NCBI RefSeq assembly: GCF_044647545.1 | Contig: NZ_CP172818.1 | DNA from: Escherichia coli | GTDB taxonomy: Bacteria > Pseudomonadota > Gammaproteobacteria > Enterobacterales > Enterobacteriaceae | Reading direction: 5' to 3' (one strand) | Length of the DNA: 64,000 nt | Part shown: positions 13,218 through 38,125 of the stretch, one piece after another | How positions within the stretch are numbered: the stretch's first letter is position 1 | How the letters are laid out: every line of letters begins with the position of its first letter | Position numbers and translations under genes: made by a program | The notes under the pieces: model-generated | Told to the model about the DNA's origin: nothing | The model's input: only the letters and a program-made list of their open reading frames with translations | Databases searched by the model: none

Positions 13218-13344
13218 TTTCATTACTGCAAATGCCCCTGCGGGGGCATTTATGGAAACGTAATTTACTCAATAATCGCCGGATGGTGAGGGATTCTTTT
13301 TACCAGAATTCAGCGCGGTGCAGCGCATATACGTGGAGAACAAA

Positions 13345-13881
13345 ATGTCATTTATCAAAACTTTTTCTGGGAAGCATTTTTATTATGACAGGATAAATAA
13401 AGACGACATCGATATTAACGATATCGCGGTTTCCCTTTCAAATATCTGTCGCTTTGCCGGTCATCTTTCGCACTTCTACAGCGTCGCCCAACATGCGGTT
13501 CTTTGCAGCCAGTTGGTGCCGCAGGAATTTGCTTTTGAAGCGTTAATGCATGATGCAACAGAAGCGTATTGCCAGGACATTCCCGCACCACTGAAACGCC
13601 TTCTTCCTGACTATAAACAAATGGAAGAAAAAATAGACGCCGTAATCCGTGAGAAATACGGGTTACCCCCAGTTATGAGTACGCCCGTGAAATATGCCGA
13701 TCTCATCATGCTGGCAACCGAACGCCGCGATCTCGGGCTTGATGATGGCTCTTTCTGGCCTGTACTGGAAGGTATCCCGGCAACAGAGATGTTCAACGTG
13801 ATTCCACTGGCTCCAGGCCATGCCTACGGGATGTTTATGGAACGCTTTAACGAATTATCGGAGTTACGAAAATGCGCATGA
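13345..13881 (+). CDS. yfdR: HD-domain phosphohydrolase (5'-deoxynucleotidase-like) YfdR
   Basis: ORF 13318-13881; HD motif region (H..HD...E) around SVAQHAVL / LMHDATEAY; start chosen at MSFIKTF (178 aa). Confidence 0.75.
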   Translation: MSFIKTFSGKHFYYDRINKDDIDINDIAVSLSNICRFAGHLSHFYSVAQHAVLCSQLVPQEFAFEALMHDATEAYCQDIPAPLKRLLPDYKQMEEKIDAVIREKYGLPPVMSTPVKYADLIMLATERRDLGLDDGSFWPVLEGIPATEMFNVIPLAPGHAYGMFMERFNELSELRKCA

Positions 13882-14234
13882 ATGTTTTCGAAATGGAAGG
13901 ATTTCTTCGCGGGAAATGTGTACCGCGAGATCTGAAAGTGAATGAAACGGATGCTGAATACCTGGTGCGTAAATTTGATGCGCTTGAAGCTAAATGTGCA
14001 GCACTGGAAAACAAAGTAATACCAGTGTCAGCTGAACTGCCGCCAGCGAATGAAAGTGTTCTGTTATTTGATGCTAATGGAGAAGGCTGGCTGATTGGCT
14101 GGCGTTCTCTCTGGTATACATGGGGGCAAAAAGAAACCGGAGAATGGCAGTGGACATTTCAGGTCGGGGACCTTGAAAACGTCAACATCACTCACTGGGC
14201 AGTAATGCCAAAAGCACCGGAGGCTGGAGCATAA
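13872..14234 (+). CDS. yfdS: Prophage protein YfdS (unknown function)
   Basis: 120 aa ORF overlapping the yfdR stop (translational coupling). Confidence 0.7.
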   Translation: MRMNVFEMEGFLRGKCVPRDLKVNETDAEYLVRKFDALEAKCAALENKVIPVSAELPPANESVLLFDANGEGWLIGWRSLWYTWGQKETGEWQWTFQVGDLENVNITHWAVMPKAPEAGA

Positions 14235-14389
14235 TGACCACTTTACCGATAAAGAACTGATTAAAGAAATCAAAGAGCGAATCAGCAGCATGGACGTGCG
14301 AGACAATGTTGAGCGCCGTGCTTATGAAATTGCTCGCACCGCTGCAGGGGACACCATCCTTGTGTTTATCCCTAAAACCACATAAAAAC
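14234..14389 (+). pseudogene. yfdT-like small phage ORF with lost start (1-nt frame change after the ATG); spans the attR core
   Basis: ATG at 14234 overlaps yfdS stop (TAATG) but reads only MTTLPIKN*; the adjacent frame encodes a start-less 48-codon ORF (HFTDKELIKEIKERISS...IPKTT*). Confidence 0.4.
14342..14356 (+). repeat. 15-nt copy of the argW 3' end (CTGCAGGGGACACCA): prophage attR core
   Basis: Exact match to the last 15 nt of tRNA-Arg(CCU), including CCA, about 3.9 kb from the truncated argW. Confidence 0.6.
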
Positions 14390-14455
14390 CGTAAATTATT
14401 AAATTCGCACTAGCAGTGCCGAATAAGGCACACCAGGAACTCGTGGTCTTATTCA

Positions 14456-15391
14456 TTATGAAGTGGTTTTTACCTGTTCTCTTAACCAAGTAATAAATGC
14501 CTCAATTTTTGGCCACTGCCTGCCCGGTAATGTGGTGATGTAATAATGCTGATGGCATTTCACCGTCATATCGCCAAACGGCGCGACGAGCTCACCACTG
14601 GCAAGCCTTTTTTGTACCAGGCGTTTTCTTCCCATCGCTACCCCAATATGATTCATCGCAGCGATAACAGCTAAATCAGAACGATCAAAGCCAATCCCAG
14701 AAGATGTCGGCAAATTAACCGCATAATGTTGCGCCCAACTATGCCATTCATCCGTACCGGAGTCGTTGCTCCATGCCTGTCTGTCATGGAGCAACGAACA
14801 GTGGCGCAGGTTAATTACCTGGTTGGTTAAAGCATGTCTTTGAGCGTATTCCGGGCTACATACAGGCAAGATTTCTTCATCCATCAGAAAGTGATGAGCC
14901 AATTGCGCTGACGGCGCATCATCAAAGTAGATCGCCAAATCGATTCCGGCACGTTGCAAATTGACATTGTCATTACCAGTGAGCACGGTGAGCGAAATAG
15001 ACGGATATCGGCGTGTAAAGTCACCTAATGCGGGCACCAACCAGCATTGGGCGATAGAGGGCCGGGAATACAGCGTTAACGTTCCCGATAATTCCTGATT
15101 TTTGATATCAAGAATTTCCTGGTTCAGGGTATCCAGCGACGATTTTAGCGCCCAATAAACGCGTTTCCCCTCGTGCGTTAATTCCACTTTGCGATGGGAA
15201 CGAACAAACAACTGAATACCTAATTCTTCTTCCAGATGATTGATACGGTGACTTACCGCACTGGGGCTCAGCGACAATTCCTCTGCCGCAAGGGCGAAGG
15301 ACTGATGCCTGGCAGCCACTTCAAAAGTATGCAGTTTTGATAGTTGCCAGCCGTTAAGCAGTCGATTTCTTATTTCACGAAGGGGTTCCAT
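14456..15391 (-). CDS. dsdC: LysR-family activator of D-serine detoxification DsdC
   Basis: ORF 14456-15397; N-terminal HTH (LSKLHTFEVAARHQSFALAAEELSLSPSAVSHRI); divergent from dsdXA; start chosen at MEPLREI. Confidence 0.85.
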   Translation of the reverse strand: MEPLREIRNRLLNGWQLSKLHTFEVAARHQSFALAAEELSLSPSAVSHRINHLEEELGIQLFVRSHRKVELTHEGKRVYWALKSSLDTLNQEILDIKNQELSGTLTLYSRPSIAQCWLVPALGDFTRRYPSISLTVLTGNDNVNLQRAGIDLAIYFDDAPSAQLAHHFLMDEEILPVCSPEYAQRHALTNQVINLRHCSLLHDRQAWSNDSGTDEWHSWAQHYAVNLPTSSGIGFDRSDLAVIAAMNHIGVAMGRKRLVQKRLASGELVAPFGDMTVKCHQHYYITTLPGRQWPKIEAFITWLREQVKTTS

Positions 15392-32805: not shown

Positions 32806-33048
32806 CTACCGCCTGCCATACCCCACCATAAAGCGAATCATCAAGCCACAAGCCGGGGCAAGAAACATAAATATCCCCGTCACTAGTTCATTACCGCCAG
32901 TTAACCACATGGTGAAGTAGTAAATGAGTGCAGCGAGGATCACCATGCCGAAGAAAGAAGAGACCGCCGAGACCACGTTCAGTACCTGACCGATGTATCC
33001 GCTTACGCAGACAATACACAGGGCGAGAAACATCCATAAATAAATCAT
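32806..33048 (-). CDS. yfdY: Small inner-membrane protein YfdY
   Basis: 80 aa, two predicted TM helices. Confidence 0.75.
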   Translation of the reverse strand: MIYLWMFLALCIVCVSGYIGQVLNVVSAVSSFFGMVILAALIYYFTMWLTGGNELVTGIFMFLAPACGLMIRFMVGYGRR

Positions 33049-33400
33049 AGCTCAACCTCCTGCCGCGCTAAAAAACCTGTAACTTCAGTCACTTTAATAG
33101 TAAGACAATCCTTAACCTCTGGCAATTTTTGCTAAGCATCAATGAAAACAGCACGTTAAATGCAACGCTATTGCGTGCGGAAAACTTTTTACTTTGCACG
33201 ATTAATAATCAGTAGCTGAAAGCAGTCAGCCAGTGATAAAGTAGAGCCACCGCATTCATGCTCCTCGTGGTTATGTCCTGACTAGTCTTTACACTCTTTA
33301 CAGGAACCATTGTCGTACATGATGGCCCAACCAATTGAGTGTACCGCTGTCGACATGGAATCTTCTGCGATACAACAATTCGTATCTACAGAAGGTAACT

Positions 33401-34321
33401 ATGTTTCCACAATGCAAATTTTCCCGCGAGTTTCTGCATCCTCGCTACTGGCTCACGTGGTTTGGGCTTGGTGTACTCTGGCTTTGGGTACAGCTTCCTT
33501 ATCCTGTTCTCTGCTTTCTCGGCACGCGTATCGGCACAATGGCGCGACCATTCCTGAAACGTCGTGAATCTATCGCCCGTAAAAACCTGGAACTTTGCTT
33601 CCCACAGCATTCTGCGGAAGAACGCGAGAAGATGATTGCCGAAAACTTTCGTTCACTCGGCATGGCGCTGGTAGAAACCGGCATGGCATGGTTCTGGCCC
33701 GACAGTCGCGTACGTAAATGGTTTGATGTTGAAGGGTTGGATAACCTTAAACGCGCACAAATGCAAAATCGCGGCGTAATGGTTGTCGGCGTCCATTTTA
33801 TGTCGCTGGAACTGGGCGGCCGCGTGATGGGACTGTGCCAACCAATGATGGCCACCTATCGTCCACATAATAATCAGCTGATGGAATGGGTGCAGACCCG
33901 TGGTCGCATGCGCTCTAACAAAGCGATGATCGGCAGAAATAATCTGCGCGGCATTGTCGGTGCACTGAAGAAAGGTGAAGCGGTATGGTTTGCTCCCGAT
34001 CAGGATTATGGTCGTAAAGGCAGCTCCTTCGCGCCGTTCTTTGCGGTGGAAAATGTCGCCACAACCAATGGCACCTATGTCCTCTCTCGTCTCTCTGGCG
34101 CAGCCATGTTGACCGTAACGATGGTAAGAAAAGCGGATTACAGCGGATATCGTTTGTACATCACCCCAGAGATGGAAGGCTACCCGGCAGATGAAAATCA
34201 AGCCGCTGCCTATATGAACAAGATTATCGAAAAAGAGATCATGCGCGCACCGGAGCAGTACCTCTGGATCCACCGTCGCTTTAAAACGCGCCCGGTGGGA
34301 GAATCGTCGCTATACATTTAA
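33401..34321 (+). CDS. lpxP: Lipid A palmitoleoyl-ACP acyltransferase LpxP (cold-induced LpxL paralog)
   Basis: ORF 33335-34321; HtrB/MsbB late-acyltransferase family; start chosen at MFPQCKF (306 aa). Confidence 0.85.
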   Translation: MFPQCKFSREFLHPRYWLTWFGLGVLWLWVQLPYPVLCFLGTRIGTMARPFLKRRESIARKNLELCFPQHSAEEREKMIAENFRSLGMALVETGMAWFWPDSRVRKWFDVEGLDNLKRAQMQNRGVMVVGVHFMSLELGGRVMGLCQPMMATYRPHNNQLMEWVQTRGRMRSNKAMIGRNNLRGIVGALKKGEAVWFAPDQDYGRKGSSFAPFFAVENVATTNGTYVLSRLSGAAMLTVTMVRKADYSGYRLYITPEMEGYPADENQAAAYMNKIIEKEIMRAPEQYLWIHRRFKTRPVGESSLYI

Positions 34322-34676
34322 CAAACTGCTCTTACTCTTTCCCTCCTCAAATCAGCCATAATAACCTCATGGTTTTTATGGCTTTTTTCTTAAGGTTTTT
34401 TCCTTCGCTGAATCTCTAATTATTACCGTCAGAAATTAAACTGTCGCCGATATGAGACACCTGTAAGTTACTAAAAGTAAATAAGAAAATGCCTCTTGTC
34501 TCGTTTCAGTTTTAGGCGTACATTAGCGCCGTCTGGAGCAGTTTAGCTCAGAATTCTGGGGTGATGCCCACGGTAAAATACAGGACTTTTAAGGTCGTTT
34601 TGCCCGGTGTCAACTCACTGTATCAGGTGTAATGAAGTCATTCAGGCGTAACAGTAATTACGCGGAGAGATGTAAA

Positions 34677-34748
34677 GTGAAATATTTCTTTATGGGCATT
34701 TCTTTTATGGTCATCGTTTGGGCCGGTACTTTTGCCCTGATGATCTAA
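34677..34748 (+). CDS. ypdK: 23-aa small membrane protein YpdK
   Basis: GTG start after GGAGAG RBS; VKYFFMGISFMVIVWAGTFALMI* is a single hydrophobic helix; below the ORF-track length cutoff. Confidence 0.6.
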   Translation: MKYFFMGISFMVIVWAGTFALMI

Positions 34749-34765
34749 AAGCAAACTGTGCAATG

Positions 34766-34800
34766 AAAAACAGGAGCCATCTGGCTCCTGTTTGCATTTC
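34766..34800. terminator. Bidirectional terminator between ypdK and alaC
   Basis: CAGGAGCC-ATCT-GGCTCCTG hairpin flanked by an A-run and a T-rich tail. Confidence 0.7.
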
Positions 34801-34812
34801 TGTCGATGGTGT

Positions 34813-36051
34813 TTATTCCGCGTTTTCGTGAATATGTTTGCTGCTGGCGGGTAGTAAACCGTCGGCACGGAACATCGCTTTAATTCCACGAATCGCCTGG
34901 CGAATACGATCGCGGTTTTCAATCAGTGCAAAGCGAACATGGGTGTCGCCGTAGTCGCCAAAGCCAATCCCTGGAGAGACACAGACCTTCGCTTCGTTAA
35001 GCATTTTCTTGGCAAATTCCAGTGAACCCATGGCCGCATACGGTTCCGGGATTTTCGCCCAGACATACATCGAAGCCTTCGGCATTTCGACCATCCAGCC
35101 CGCTTCATGCAGCCCTTTTACCAGTACATCACGGCGGCGTTTGTACTGTTCGGCAATGTCGCGCACGCACTGTTGATCGCCCTCCAGCGCCGCAATCGCT
35201 GCCACCTGCAACGGCGTAAAGGTGCCGTAATCGTGATAGCTTTTAATACGTGCCAACGCGCTGACCAGCGTTTTGTTACCGACCATAAAGCCGATACGCC
35301 AGCCCGCCATGTTGTAGCTTTTCGACAGCGTAAAGAACTCGACTGCCACATCGCGTGCACCTGGCACCTGCATGATTGACGGCGCTTTCCAGCCATCGTA
35401 GACGATGTCCGCATAGGCCAGGTCATGGACCACCAGCACATCGTAGCGTTTCGCCAGCGCCACTACTTTTTCGAAGAACTCCAGCTCCACGCATTGCGCG
35501 GTTGGGTTCGACGGGAAGCCGAGGATCATCATCTTCGGTTTTGGATAACTTTCGCGAATGGCGCGTTCCAGTTCGTTGAAGAAATCGACACCTTCCACCA
35601 GCGGCACTGAGCGTACCTGCGCCCCGGCAATCACCGCGCCGTAAATATGAATCGGGTAGCTTGGATTAGGCACCAGTACAGTGTCACCATGATCCAGCGT
35701 CGCCAGCATCAGATGCGCCAGGCCCTCTTTCGAACCAATAGTGACGATGGCTTCTGATTCCGGGTCGATTTCAACGTCGTAGCGATCCTGATACCAGCGG
35801 GAAATGGCGCGACGTAGCCGCGGAATGCCGCGTGAAGTGGAGTAACCATGCGTGTCCGGGCGCTGGGCCACCGTACATAATTTTTCGACGATATGCGGCG
35901 GAGTCGCACCGTCCGGGTTACCCATACTGAAATCGATAATATCTTCGCCGCGCCGACGCGCAGCCATTTTCAGTTCAGCGGTAATGTTAAAAACGTAGGG
36001 CGGGAGACGATCAATACGCGTAAAGCGACGTTCAGGGCGAGTGTCAGCCAT
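34813..36051 (-). CDS. alaC: Glutamate-pyruvate aminotransferase AlaC (YfdZ)
   Basis: 412 aa class I/II aminotransferase (PLP-lysine region [12 protein letters not shown]). Confidence 0.9.
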
Positions 36052-36427
36052 AATGTCCTCAGATTAACGTTAGCGCCCGGACCGTCCGAGCGACGCTGCC
36101 ACGATGGTGGCTGTTTTGAAAATAGCCTGATTAATTTCTGTCTGTCCAGCGTTTTAGAACATTTTTATCAATGGCTTTAAATGAGGAACTCCACTTCAAA
36201 AACAGGAAATTTATCTGCGCTAACAAGAAAATTACCACTCATTTTATTAACATTATAATTTCAATAAATTTACCAAGCAGATGTGCATTATCAAGAGATG
36301 CATTGCTAATACACCATTTATCCTTCAATCCCCTTTTAAAATTGTGGTTTTTCCTCAAAAACGGCCTGCTGGTCATCAGCCTTCAGGTTACCTATCATAG
36401 AGGTTTAATCCTTATTCAGAGTCACCC

Positions 36428-38125
36428 GTGCACGAAATATTCAACATGCTGCTGGCGGTCTTCGATCGGGCAGCGTTAATGCTTATCTGCCTGTTTTTTC
36501 TCATCCGTATCCGCCTGTTTCGCGAACTGTTGCACAAGTCGGCACACTCACCGAAAGAGCTGCTCGCCGTTACCGCCATTTTCTCGCTGTTCGCCCTGTT
36601 CAGCACCTGGTCCGGAGTTCCCGTAGAAGGCTCGCTGGTGAACGTACGTATTATCGCGGTGATGTCAGGCGGGATTCTGTTTGGCCCGTGGGTGGGCATC
36701 ATTACCGGCGTGATTGCGGGTATTCATCGTTATTTAATTGACATCGGCGGCGTGACGGCGATCCCCTGCTTTATCACCAGCATTCTGGCGGGTTGTATAT
36801 CGGGCTGGATCAACCTGAAAATCCCCAAAGCACAGCGCTGGCGCGTCGGTATTCTCGGCGGCATGTTATGTGAAACGTTGACCATGATTCTGGTGATTGT
36901 CTGGGCACCAACTACCGCGTTGGGGATCGATATCGTCTCTAAAATCGGCATTCCAATGATCCTCGGTAGCGTCTGTATCGGCTTTATTGTGCTGCTGGTG
37001 CAAAGCGTTGAGGGCGAAAAAGAGGCCAGCGCCGCGCGGCAGGCCAAGCTGGCGCTGGATATCGCCAACAAAACGCTGCCGCTGTTTCGCCATGTCAATA
37101 GCGAGTCATTACGCAAGGTCTGCGAAATTATCCGCGATGACATTCACGCCGATGCGGTGGCGATTACAAATACCGATCATGTGCTGGCCTATGTTGGCGT
37201 GGGTGAGCATAACTATCAGAATGGCGATGATTTCATTAGCCCGACTACCCGCCAGGCGATGAATTACGGAAAAATCATCATTAAAAACAATGATGAAGCC
37301 CACCGCACACCAGAGATTCATTCCATGCTGGTGATCCCATTGTGGGAGAAAGGCGTTGTGACCGGAACGCTGAAAATTTACTACTGCCACGCGCATCAGA
37401 TAACCTCGTCATTACAGGAAATGGCGGTCGGTCTGTCACAAATCATCTCCACGCAACTGGAGGTTTCGCGCGCTGAGCAGCTGCGTGAAATGGCAAATAA
37501 GGCAGAGCTTCGCGCCCTGCAAAGCAAAATTAATCCCCATTTCCTGTTTAACGCTTTGAACGCTATTTCATCGTCAATCCGCCTGAATCCGGATACTGCT
37601 CGCCAGCTGATCTTTAATTTGTCGCGCTATCTGCGCTATAACATTGAATTAAAAGATGATGAGCAAATCGATATCAAAAAAGAGCTGTATCAAATTAAAG
37701 ACTATATTGCCATTGAGCAGGCCCGCTTTGGCGACAAGCTGACGGTTATCTATGATATTGATGAAGAGGTGAATTGCTGCATTCCCAGCCTGCTGATCCA
37801 GCCGTTGGTGGAAAACGCCATTGTCCACGGTATCCAGCCTTGCAAAGGTAAAGGCGTTGTCACCATCAGCGTTGCAGAGTGCGGTAATCGGGTACGTATT
37901 GCGGTGCGAGATACCGGGCACGGCATCGATCCAAAGGTGATTGAGCGGGTCGAAGCGAATGAAATGCCGGGCAATAAAATTGGCCTGCTGAATGTCCATC
38001 ATCGCGTGAAGTTATTGTATGGCGAGGGGCTGCATATCCGCCGCCTGGAACCAGGAACGGAAATTGCGTTTTACATTCCTAACCAACGCACCCCAGTCGC
38101 CTCACAGGCTACCTTATTGCTTTGA
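36428..38125 (+). CDS. ypdA: LytS-type sensor histidine kinase YpdA
   Basis: 565 aa; 5TM-LytS N-terminus, GAF-like region, His_kinase motif ([10 protein letters not shown]), HATPase. Confidence 0.9.

Follow-up and report, generated by a model that had tools for sequence, protein, structure and literature searches.

The small gene ypdK of Escherichia coli, its putative promoter and its conserved, partly covarying 5' leader

Precedent for very small membrane proteins acting on larger ones comes from MgrB, AcrZ and CydX, which are described as single-helix proteins that modulate PhoQ, AcrB and CydAB, respectively; the insertion of another such protein, YohP, is described as SRP-dependent. YpdK of E. 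coli belongs to the size class of these proteins and of MgtS, which is paired with MgtA, and like them it would form a single hydrophobic helix. It also shares with the MgrB/AcrZ/MgtS/CydX class its conservation in the Enterobacteriaceae and a small transcription unit of its own. Unlike the members of this class, however, YpdK has no soluble tail, its 23 amino acids being essentially helix only; its conserved residues surround the helix instead of marking one face; and no partner, phenotype or regulon has been assigned to it.

Small hydrophobic peptides are also found among the type I toxins, such as TisB, DinQ, Ibs and Ldr, and their likeness to YpdK extends to a modest induction by UV and to a long structured 5' UTR in which the Shine-Dalgarno sequence (SD) is predicted to be occluded. 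Toxin genes of this type are typically patchy in distribution and multi-copy. ypdK, unlike them, is single-copy, syntenic and strongly conserved across families, and no cognate antisense RNA was found for it.

Closest of all is YpdK of E. coli K-12 (NCBIfam NF033437), with which the gene studied here agrees in amino-acid sequence, in RefSeq coordinates and in the synteny lpxP - ypdK -> <- alaC; we find no difference between the two, and this is one gene seen in another E. coli strain. The protein has reportedly been detected by chromosomal epitope tagging. In PMC3009722, Hemm et al. (2008) are credited with ypdK as one of 18 new small membrane proteins. In what follows, the window is the whole 64,000-nt stretch of E. 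coli DNA that was analysed, and the features of the locus are collected in Table 1.

Table 1. Features in and around ypdK, with their positions in the window and the basis of each assignment
Feature	Position	Strand	Description and basis
lpxP CDS	33401..34321	+	Upstream neighbour, outside the ypdK unit; RefSeq annotation
lpxP intrinsic-terminator hairpin	34354..34383	+	Followed by UUUUUU; 89-nt stretch 34322-34410 folds at -18.4 kcal/mol, z = -5.2
Putative -35 hexamer of ypdK promoter	34496..34501	+	TTGTCT; conserved motif
Putative -10 hexamer of ypdK promoter	34519..34524	+	TACATT, inside near-invariant GTACATTAG; conserved motif
ypdK 5' leader	34531..34676	+	About 146 nt, predicted transcription start site to GTG; structure model
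H1, 5'-terminal hairpin	34532..34552	+	In the window MFE structure; weak support
H2, long-range helix	34558..34616	+	Apical part variable and deletable; RNAalifold core and covariation
H3, SD-abutting hairpin	34646..34663	+	GCGUAA-cagtaa-UUACGC, 34646-34651 with 34658-34663; covariation
Shine-Dalgarno sequence	34664..34669	+	GGAGAG; 7 nt between SD and GTG
ypdK CDS	34677..34748	+	23 codons plus TAA, GTG start, product fMet-KYFFMGISFMVIVWAGTFALMI; RefSeq WP_010723117.1
Bidirectional intrinsic terminator	34768..34793	.	Common to ypdK (+) and alaC (-); folding and sequence features
alaC CDS	34813..36051	-	Convergent neighbour, the only gene with conserved ypdK pairing; RefSeq annotation

Identity and coding conservation of ypdK

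A first-pass annotation of the window had reported, from the letters alone, a 23-codon hydrophobic "ypdK-like" micro-ORF with a GTG start and a GGAGAG ribosome-binding site, lying between lpxP and alaC. The ORF, its start codon, the ribosome-binding site and, according to RefSeq, both neighbours are all where that annotation had placed them. Read on the plus strand, 34677-34748 begins GTG AAA TAT TTC, ends ATC TAA and translates to VKYFFMGISFMVIVWAGTFALMI. The relationship to ypdK was correctly seen and only the word "like" has to go: the RefSeq CDS for "membrane protein YpdK" (WP_010723117.1) has identical coordinates and the peptide matches the YpdK equivalog model NF033437 with 57.5 bits (cutoff 30; E = 9.4e-16) over positions 1-23 of 23, so that the ORF is ypdK itself. 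RefSeq CDS annotation was transferred to the window one-to-one from NZ_CP033850.1, and the RefSeq ypdK CDS of E. coli FDAARGOS_497, which is 100% identical, maps exactly onto the window ORF. A 501-nt query spanning the ORF found a match in 5422 of 5426 complete E. coli genomes, at a median of one place per genome, and the annotation under the match reads "ypdK: membrane protein YpdK" in all records listed. As to the accompanying remark that the ORF is easy to miss, PGAP annotates ypdK in this many genomes, and current pipelines do not overlook it.

On at least 1000 contigs a peptide of exactly this sequence carries the catalogue name "Uncharacterized membrane protein YpdK", and it is entered as ypdK/TRANSMEMBRANE in the supplementary tables of PMC11188072, where ypdK clusters are given for Citrobacter, Escherichia, Kosakonia, Pantoea, Erwinia and Yersinia. 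The most divergent forms of YpdK, those of Pantoea and Cedecea, also score above the NF033437 cutoff. Pfam holds no family for the peptide, and it is absent from all PDB chains of solved structures. We regard it as almost certain, from sequence and annotation, that the 23-codon ORF is the E. coli gene already annotated as ypdK, known and not new; as both an annotation and a curated family model exist for the gene, nothing is changed as far as the gene call is concerned.

For the comparison across species we used AlaC-anchored syntenic regions from 80 species, one genome each, ranging from Escherichia to Pantoea, Mixta and Mangrovibacter. Two of the 80 loci stop at a contig edge just beyond alaC and were left unscored, so that 78 were assessable. 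A YpdK-homologous ORF of 23 or 24 codons, convergent with alaC, is present at 77 of these 78 species loci, the sole exception being Candidatus Pantoea haifensis, where ypdK is frameshifted. Conservation had been proposed as a check in the first-pass annotation, and the ORF has come through it, being intact in nearly all assessable species and having a median pairwise dN/dS of 0.13 (pooled pN/pS 0.25). Furthermore, we found that: (i) GTG serves as the start codon in all 79 sequences; (ii) TAA, TAG and TGA are all in use as stop codons across species, and length changes by one whole codon only; (iii) mean entropy at codon positions 1, 2 and 3 is 0.51, 0.14 and 1.09 bits, respectively, across 68 distinct ypdK DNA sequences; and (iv) G7, S9, G17 and T18 are invariant, with all four bases seen at their third positions. 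The codon-position entropies and the dN/dS point to selection at the level of the protein. Judged by these comparisons, the substitution pattern is that of a protein-coding gene and rules out an explanation at the RNA level alone, and the 23-codon ORF is under strong purifying selection on its protein.

The residues that are invariant or nearly so are K2, Y3, M6, G7, S9, W15, G17, T18, F19 and M22, and at the variable positions hydrophobic residues are swapped only for hydrophobic ones. With a GRAVY of 1.73, YpdK stands at the top of the 361 window ORFs of 20-30 codons (mean -0.06, sd 0.70). Both observations are consistent with the single hydrophobic helix that had been suggested for the product, and the hydropathy also agrees with a place in the membrane.

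These data bear on two other accounts of the ORF. According to the first, the ORF would be untranslated and its conservation would derive from the 3' region of a non-coding RNA or from constraint imposed by the alaC terminator. The existence of a transcript with a conserved structured leader would be in line with this account, as would the fact that the intergenic region once gave an sRNA candidate, but the account sits badly with the three-base periodicity of substitutions, the low dN/dS, the scrambling of four-fold-degenerate sites at invariant residues, the interchange of stop codons and the confinement of indels to whole codons; moreover, the annotated sRNA candidate, Tpke70, lies on the other strand, 290 nt off. 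We find this account hardly credible. Tpke70 was also considered as the ypdK transcript itself and was rejected, as its published sequence aligns to the minus strand at 34385->33987, where it is antisense to the 3' end of lpxP.

According to the second account, the true product would be a 38-aa protein from ATG 34632 (MKSFRRNSNYAERCKVKYFF...) and the 23-aa form would be mis-annotated. No stop codon interrupts this longer frame in the window or in a second E. coli strain, and several annotation pipelines have deposited the 38-aa form for E. coli and Shigella. The frame is open only in Escherichia/Shigella, however: in Citrobacter, Salmonella, Klebsiella, Enterobacter and others it meets a stop codon 0-2 codons before the GTG. 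The extension would also overlap the covarying leader hairpin H3, the SD-like AGGTG is only 2 nt from the ATG, and RefSeq and NCBIfam both use the 23-aa form. A 38-aa product is in our view very improbable. Comparative data contradict both this and the non-coding account, and by the same data the conserved gene is the 23-aa GTG form.

Two further candidate frames were rejected. One is a leader uORF headed by GAGGTGATG (34561/34564-34632), which had been considered as a conserved element; its ATG does not keep its position, other genera having GAGCTGGAGT and GAGATGGAGC, and indels as well as a natural 33-nt deletion occur there. The other is an ATG located 7 nt before the GTG, considered as the start of an overlapping gene; it is found at -7 in 39 sequences and at -6 in 9, is absent in 21, and the length of the ensuing ORF ranges from 1 to 50 codons.

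Transcription unit and genomic neighbourhood

Given that lpxP has a terminator hairpin of its own, ypdK is insulated from lpxP transcription and constitutes an autonomous transcription unit. Upstream of ypdK, 75 of 79 sequences, ranging from Escherichia to Pantoea, share the arrangement cTTGT(C/T/A) - 17 nt - TAnATT, and we propose that the gene has its own conserved sigma-70-like promoter, putatively formed in the window by TTGTCT and TACATT at a spacing of 17 nt. Our promoter scan did not list this promoter because only 8 of its 12 consensus positions match, which is under the threshold of the scan. The predicted transcription start site is at about 34531, 146 nt upstream of the GTG. A published tiling-array study (PMC3009722) reports a plus-strand transcript at K-12 coordinates 2494795-2494997, ypdK being located at 2494943-2495014, and the 5' edge of this transcript is thus 148 nt upstream of the ypdK start codon. 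In the same study the transcript changed by log2 +1.06 after UV, an induction of about two-fold. The closeness of the published edge at -148 to the predicted one at -146 provides independent support for the promoter and for the expression of ypdK.

The first-pass annotation had also described a strong bidirectional terminator behind the ORF. The hairpin in question, AAACAGGAGCC-ATCT-GGCTCCTGTTT, has an 11-bp stem and is stable on both strands, with centroid energies of -19.2 kcal/mol (plus strand) and -17.9 kcal/mol (minus strand); for the 64-nt inter-stop spacers the folding energies on the two strands are -22.6 and -21.5 kcal/mol (z = -3.8 and -3.3 versus dinucleotide shuffles). To this extent the description stands, but the E. 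coli T-tract is interrupted on the ypdK side (TTTGCATTTCTG), whereas GAAAAA on the alaC side gives a UUUUU tract, and from this comparison the terminator looks better in the alaC direction, though it is bidirectional by its sequence features. A GC core with at least 5 A in the 8 nt upstream and at least 5 T in the 8 nt downstream occurs in 52 of 78 species, the window terminator having 6 A and 5 T within 8 nt of its core. The stems vary by genus and stay complementary (CAGGAGCC/GGCTCCTG, CAGGCGCC/GGCGCCTG, GGGAGCC/GGCTCCC and GGGGCGAC/GTCGCCCC), and in the Pantoea group the inter-stop hairpins lack U-tracts. The bidirectional reading is supported by these sequence features.

The place of ypdK between lpxP and alaC holds across species on one side only. 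Convergent pairing with alaC is found at every assessable species locus, the two stop codons usually being 41-154 nt apart, whereas lpxP precedes ypdK in Escherichia, Citrobacter, Salmonella, Enterobacter and Leclercia only. Elsewhere the upstream genes are unrelated, and they include those for an amidohydrolase-like protein, MFS transporters, a beta-lactamase, an EAL-domain protein, an ammonia-lyase, an HlyD-like adaptor and a chemoreceptor. On the far side of alaC, ypdA follows in most loci; it does not do so in the Salmonella loci, and since these keep an identical YpdK, the link to ypdA is weakened. Naming a partner from genomic context was given up, the upstream genes varying by genus and linkage to lpxP being limited to few genera; as far as gene order can tell, context indicates nothing past alaC and ypdA as a partner.

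The 5' leader and predicted access to the Shine-Dalgarno sequence

The leader together with the start of the ORF folds at -48.7 kcal/mol (z = -2.5). When 49 Enterobacteriaceae leaders were aligned by sequence only, RNAalifold found only the SD-abutting hairpin, H3, and with 41 leaders of similar length it also recovered the core of H2. A five-helix model of the leader is 85.8% paired versus 79.5 +/- 0.5 in shuffles and contains 98 compensatory cells versus 45 +/- 5, with slid registers being 35-51% paired; related sequences may beat shuffles without any structure and the model was built from the same sequences, so we treat H2 and H3 as supported and the other helices as tentative.

In H3, 88% of cells are paired in the 49 leaders and 91.5% in the five-helix model. 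Five of its 6 pairs changed on both sides, and compensatory cells number 36, shuffles having 14 +/- 4 and 0 of 500 being as high; slid registers were 6-65% paired. The 5' strand of H2 (34558-34569) reads GGGGUGAUGCCC and in most genera GAGGUGAUGC, a conserved SD-like block with which the 3' strand, GCAUCAGCUC (34605-34616), pairs. Paired cells amount to 90% in this helix, and changes on both sides are seen in 5 of its 11 pairs; in another E. coli strain the apical part of H2 is lost through a natural deletion of about 33 nt that leaves the stem in place. Covariation thus lends support, at the level of sequence comparison, to both of these helices. H1 is formed from different stem sequences in different genera, with changes on both sides in all 7 pairs, and its pairing reaches only 72% of cells because of register shifts in the alignment; its stability is no greater than that of shuffles (median z -0.3). 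The leader as a whole varies or is shortened in Klebsiella, Cedecea and Pantoea. Rfam has no family for it, the only match in 33000-36500 being a chance one to Plastid-psbJ-2 over the 3' end of the ORF and the terminator (24 bits, the gathering score being 65.6; E = 0.14). The conserved, partly covarying leader may be the one element of this locus that is new.

In the 79 sequences, as read from their listing, a GGAG or GAGG core is found at most about 10 nt before the GTG, and all 49 of the aligned Enterobacteriaceae leaders have GGAG. For E. coli, folding predicts that most of the SD zone is paired, its probability of being unpaired being 0.04 versus a median of 0.43 for other window genes; this ranks second of 38 window genes, and second of 28 when only controls with verified starts are used. 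The start codon itself is predicted to be open. The corresponding SD value differs between species, from 0.05 to 0.81. A helix of four pairs, UUCU (34554-34557) with GGAG, is 91% paired and shows no covariation, and in the window MFE structure the SD pairs with codons 3-6 instead of UUCU. The folding models thus leave the partner of the SD ambiguous between UUCU and codons 3-6. Taken with the invariant GTG, the predicted occlusion of the SD suggests that translation of ypdK is kept low or gated.

There is some resemblance here to SD-occluding 5' UTR elements and RNA thermometers of the fourU and ROSE kinds, in that UUCU is predicted to pair with GGAG and to close a three-way junction. The resemblance ends with the lack of covariation in that helix and the alternative partner in the window MFE structure, and the predicted accessibility of the SD is nearly flat from 15 to 45 C, unlike that of a thermometer: the probability that the SD zone is unpaired is, in silico, 0.01 at 15 C and 0.08 at 45 C, with a control median of 0.39-0.44. 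An RNA thermometer acting through UUCU:GGAG was rejected on these grounds.

It is conceivable, though we doubt it, that the leader of about 146 nt is an undescribed conserved cis-regulatory RNA that gates the translation of YpdK on some signal. Such an element would comprise the 5' hairpin, the long-range helix with its SD-like GAGGUGAUGC, the SD-abutting hairpin and the occluded SD. Occlusion would be brought about by UUCU or by codons 3-6, and the same control would include the invariant GTG and the second codon, AAA.

The conservation of the leader could also be indicative of a dual-function transcript, that is, a YpdK mRNA whose leader, with its invariant AGAAUUCUGAGGUGAUGC and CUCUCUAUACUCAG, base-pairs with a target or sequesters a protein. 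The primary sequence of the leader is conserved beyond what its helices need, two of these helices have covariation support, and an Rfam match is lacking. However, cis control of translation or stability would explain the conservation equally well, the leader is variable or shorter in the three genera named above, and no target and no evidence of Hfq, ProQ or CsrA involvement was found. We see only a slim chance that the transcript has such a second role.

Possible function of YpdK

We favor the interpretation, which we think probable, that the known gene ypdK is an autonomous unit whose single-helix inner-membrane product would modulate a larger membrane protein and whose translation would be low or gated. 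A different interpretation is that YpdK is a type I toxin-like peptide which, like TisB, DinQ or Ibs, would perturb or depolarise the inner membrane, its synthesis being restrained by the long structured 5' UTR and a weak start codon. A very hydrophobic helix of 23 amino acids would suit such a peptide, as would the predicted occlusion of the SD in a long, structured leader, the use of GTG in all species and the roughly two-fold rise of the transcript with UV (PMC3009722). What this interpretation clashes with is that ypdK, strongly constrained by purifying selection, is a single gene in strict synteny in 77 of 78 species, where a patchy multi-copy distribution was looked for. In the sequence, no antisense RNA gene overlapping ypdK was found, the only source of antisense RNA that would be left being read-through of the alaC terminator, and the promoter scan gave no minus-strand promoter-like site facing the ypdK ORF. 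In addition, no LexA box was seen by eye, and the sRNA candidate Tpke70 maps elsewhere. We consider a toxin-like role improbable.

Returning to the interpretation that we favor, the accessory-subunit mechanism that we have in mind is a tentative proposal, argued largely by analogy with the MgrB/AcrZ/MgtS/CydX class and, in our estimate, falling somewhat short of an even chance. Residues of about 4-23 of YpdK would form a single transmembrane helix. Lys2 is the only charged residue, from which an N-in/C-out orientation with Lys2 in the cytoplasm is predicted. The peptide would be inserted post-translationally into the inner membrane, as is shown for YohP, would pack against transmembrane helices of a larger membrane protein or complex, and would in this way tune the activity, assembly or stability of its partner. 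The invariant residues, both small (G7, S9, G17 and T18) and aromatic (Y3, W15 and F19), fit tight packing.

A single conserved helical face was considered as an interaction surface and is unsupported: the invariant residues do not fall on one side of the helix (R = 0.13, P = 0.75), and with these residues spread round the helix there is no obvious single surface of interaction. Such an arrangement would suit burial in a groove or in an oligomer.

The recovery of ypdK serves as a positive control, in that genuine micro-genes can be found from raw sequence by a first-stage reader. The invariant residues, the universal GTG, the conserved promoter and the covarying leader with its predicted occluded SD may aid work on the function of YpdK.

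Initiation region and upstream reading frames of ypdK

At the 5' end of ypdK (34677-34691), synonymous codon choice is frozen across the sequences compared: the start codon is GTG in 79 of 79, codon 2 is AAA in all 68 and never AAG, and codon 5, where it encodes Phe, is TTT in 39 of 39. In the predicted minimum free energy structure of the window, codons 3-6 are paired with the SD. These frozen choices may reflect selection on initiation or, alternatively, on RNA structure.

Of the unique sequences, 39 also carry an ATG ahead of the GTG at -7 and nine carry one at -6, where it is in frame with ypdK (product MNVKYF...); the remaining 21 lack it. Because the ORF that opens at this ATG varies from 1 to 50 codons across sequences, the ATG is not conserved as a coding start. 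SD pairing may be extended by the conserved GAT(G) before the GTG, or this element may participate in SD occlusion. A second reading frame, located inside the leader, was considered as a conserved uORF and rejected since both the position of its ATG and its frame are unconserved in other genera.

Features in and around the ypdK region and at the tRNA-Arg gene
Feature	Position	Strand	Remarks
tRNA-Arg gene	14282-14356		annotated
Tpke70 alignment	33950-34385	-	436 nt, 98% identity to published sequence
Promoter-like site GCGACA-17-AATAAT	34447->34419	-	within block 34419-34490
Inverted repeat TGTCGCC...GACA	34442-34459		within block 34419-34490; most genera: TGTCGCCGAATCACGACA
Leader-internal 23-codon ORF	34561-34632	+	GTG/ATG inside SD-like GGGGTGATG
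Out-of-frame ATG-TAA 'start-stop'	34670-34675		between SD and GTG of ypdK

Variation among loci

The leader of a second E. coli strain (L002) carries a natural deletion of ~33 nt relative to window 34571-34603, and leader length is therefore polymorphic within E. coli; the apical part of the long-range helix H2 is lost in this strain and the stem is kept. In Candidatus Pantoea haifensis (L072, ~4793-4866) the ypdK homologue is frameshifted past codon 10 (VKYALMGISFSCCFGSAPLC*), the sole disrupted copy in the 78 assessable species. Two further loci (L019 and L031) have an additional ~100-nt insert between the ypdK terminator and alaC, which is REP-like with a very strong fold (~-70 kcal/mol for the region) and widens the inter-stop spacer to ~150 nt.

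Neighboring features

Tpke70, regarded as an uncharacterised sRNA (PMC6172242), lies opposite the 3' end of lpxP in antisense orientation, with its start within the lpxP terminator hairpin; as placed by alignment of its published sequence to the window, it does not overlap ypdK.

At a distance from this region, annotation from the E. coli record NZ_CP033850.1 transferred exactly from 14.4 kb on, and before 14.2 kb 10 of 10 transferred CDS starts had no start codon in the window. This pattern indicates an indel at 13274-15391 of the window relative to that record, probably located near the tRNA-Arg gene.

Upstream of the ypdK promoter is a block (34419-34490) conserved across genera, including those without lpxP at this position. 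It holds an inverted repeat centred ~80 nt upstream of the predicted ypdK transcription start as well as a promoter-like site. The block might bind a transcription factor or act as a divergent promoter.
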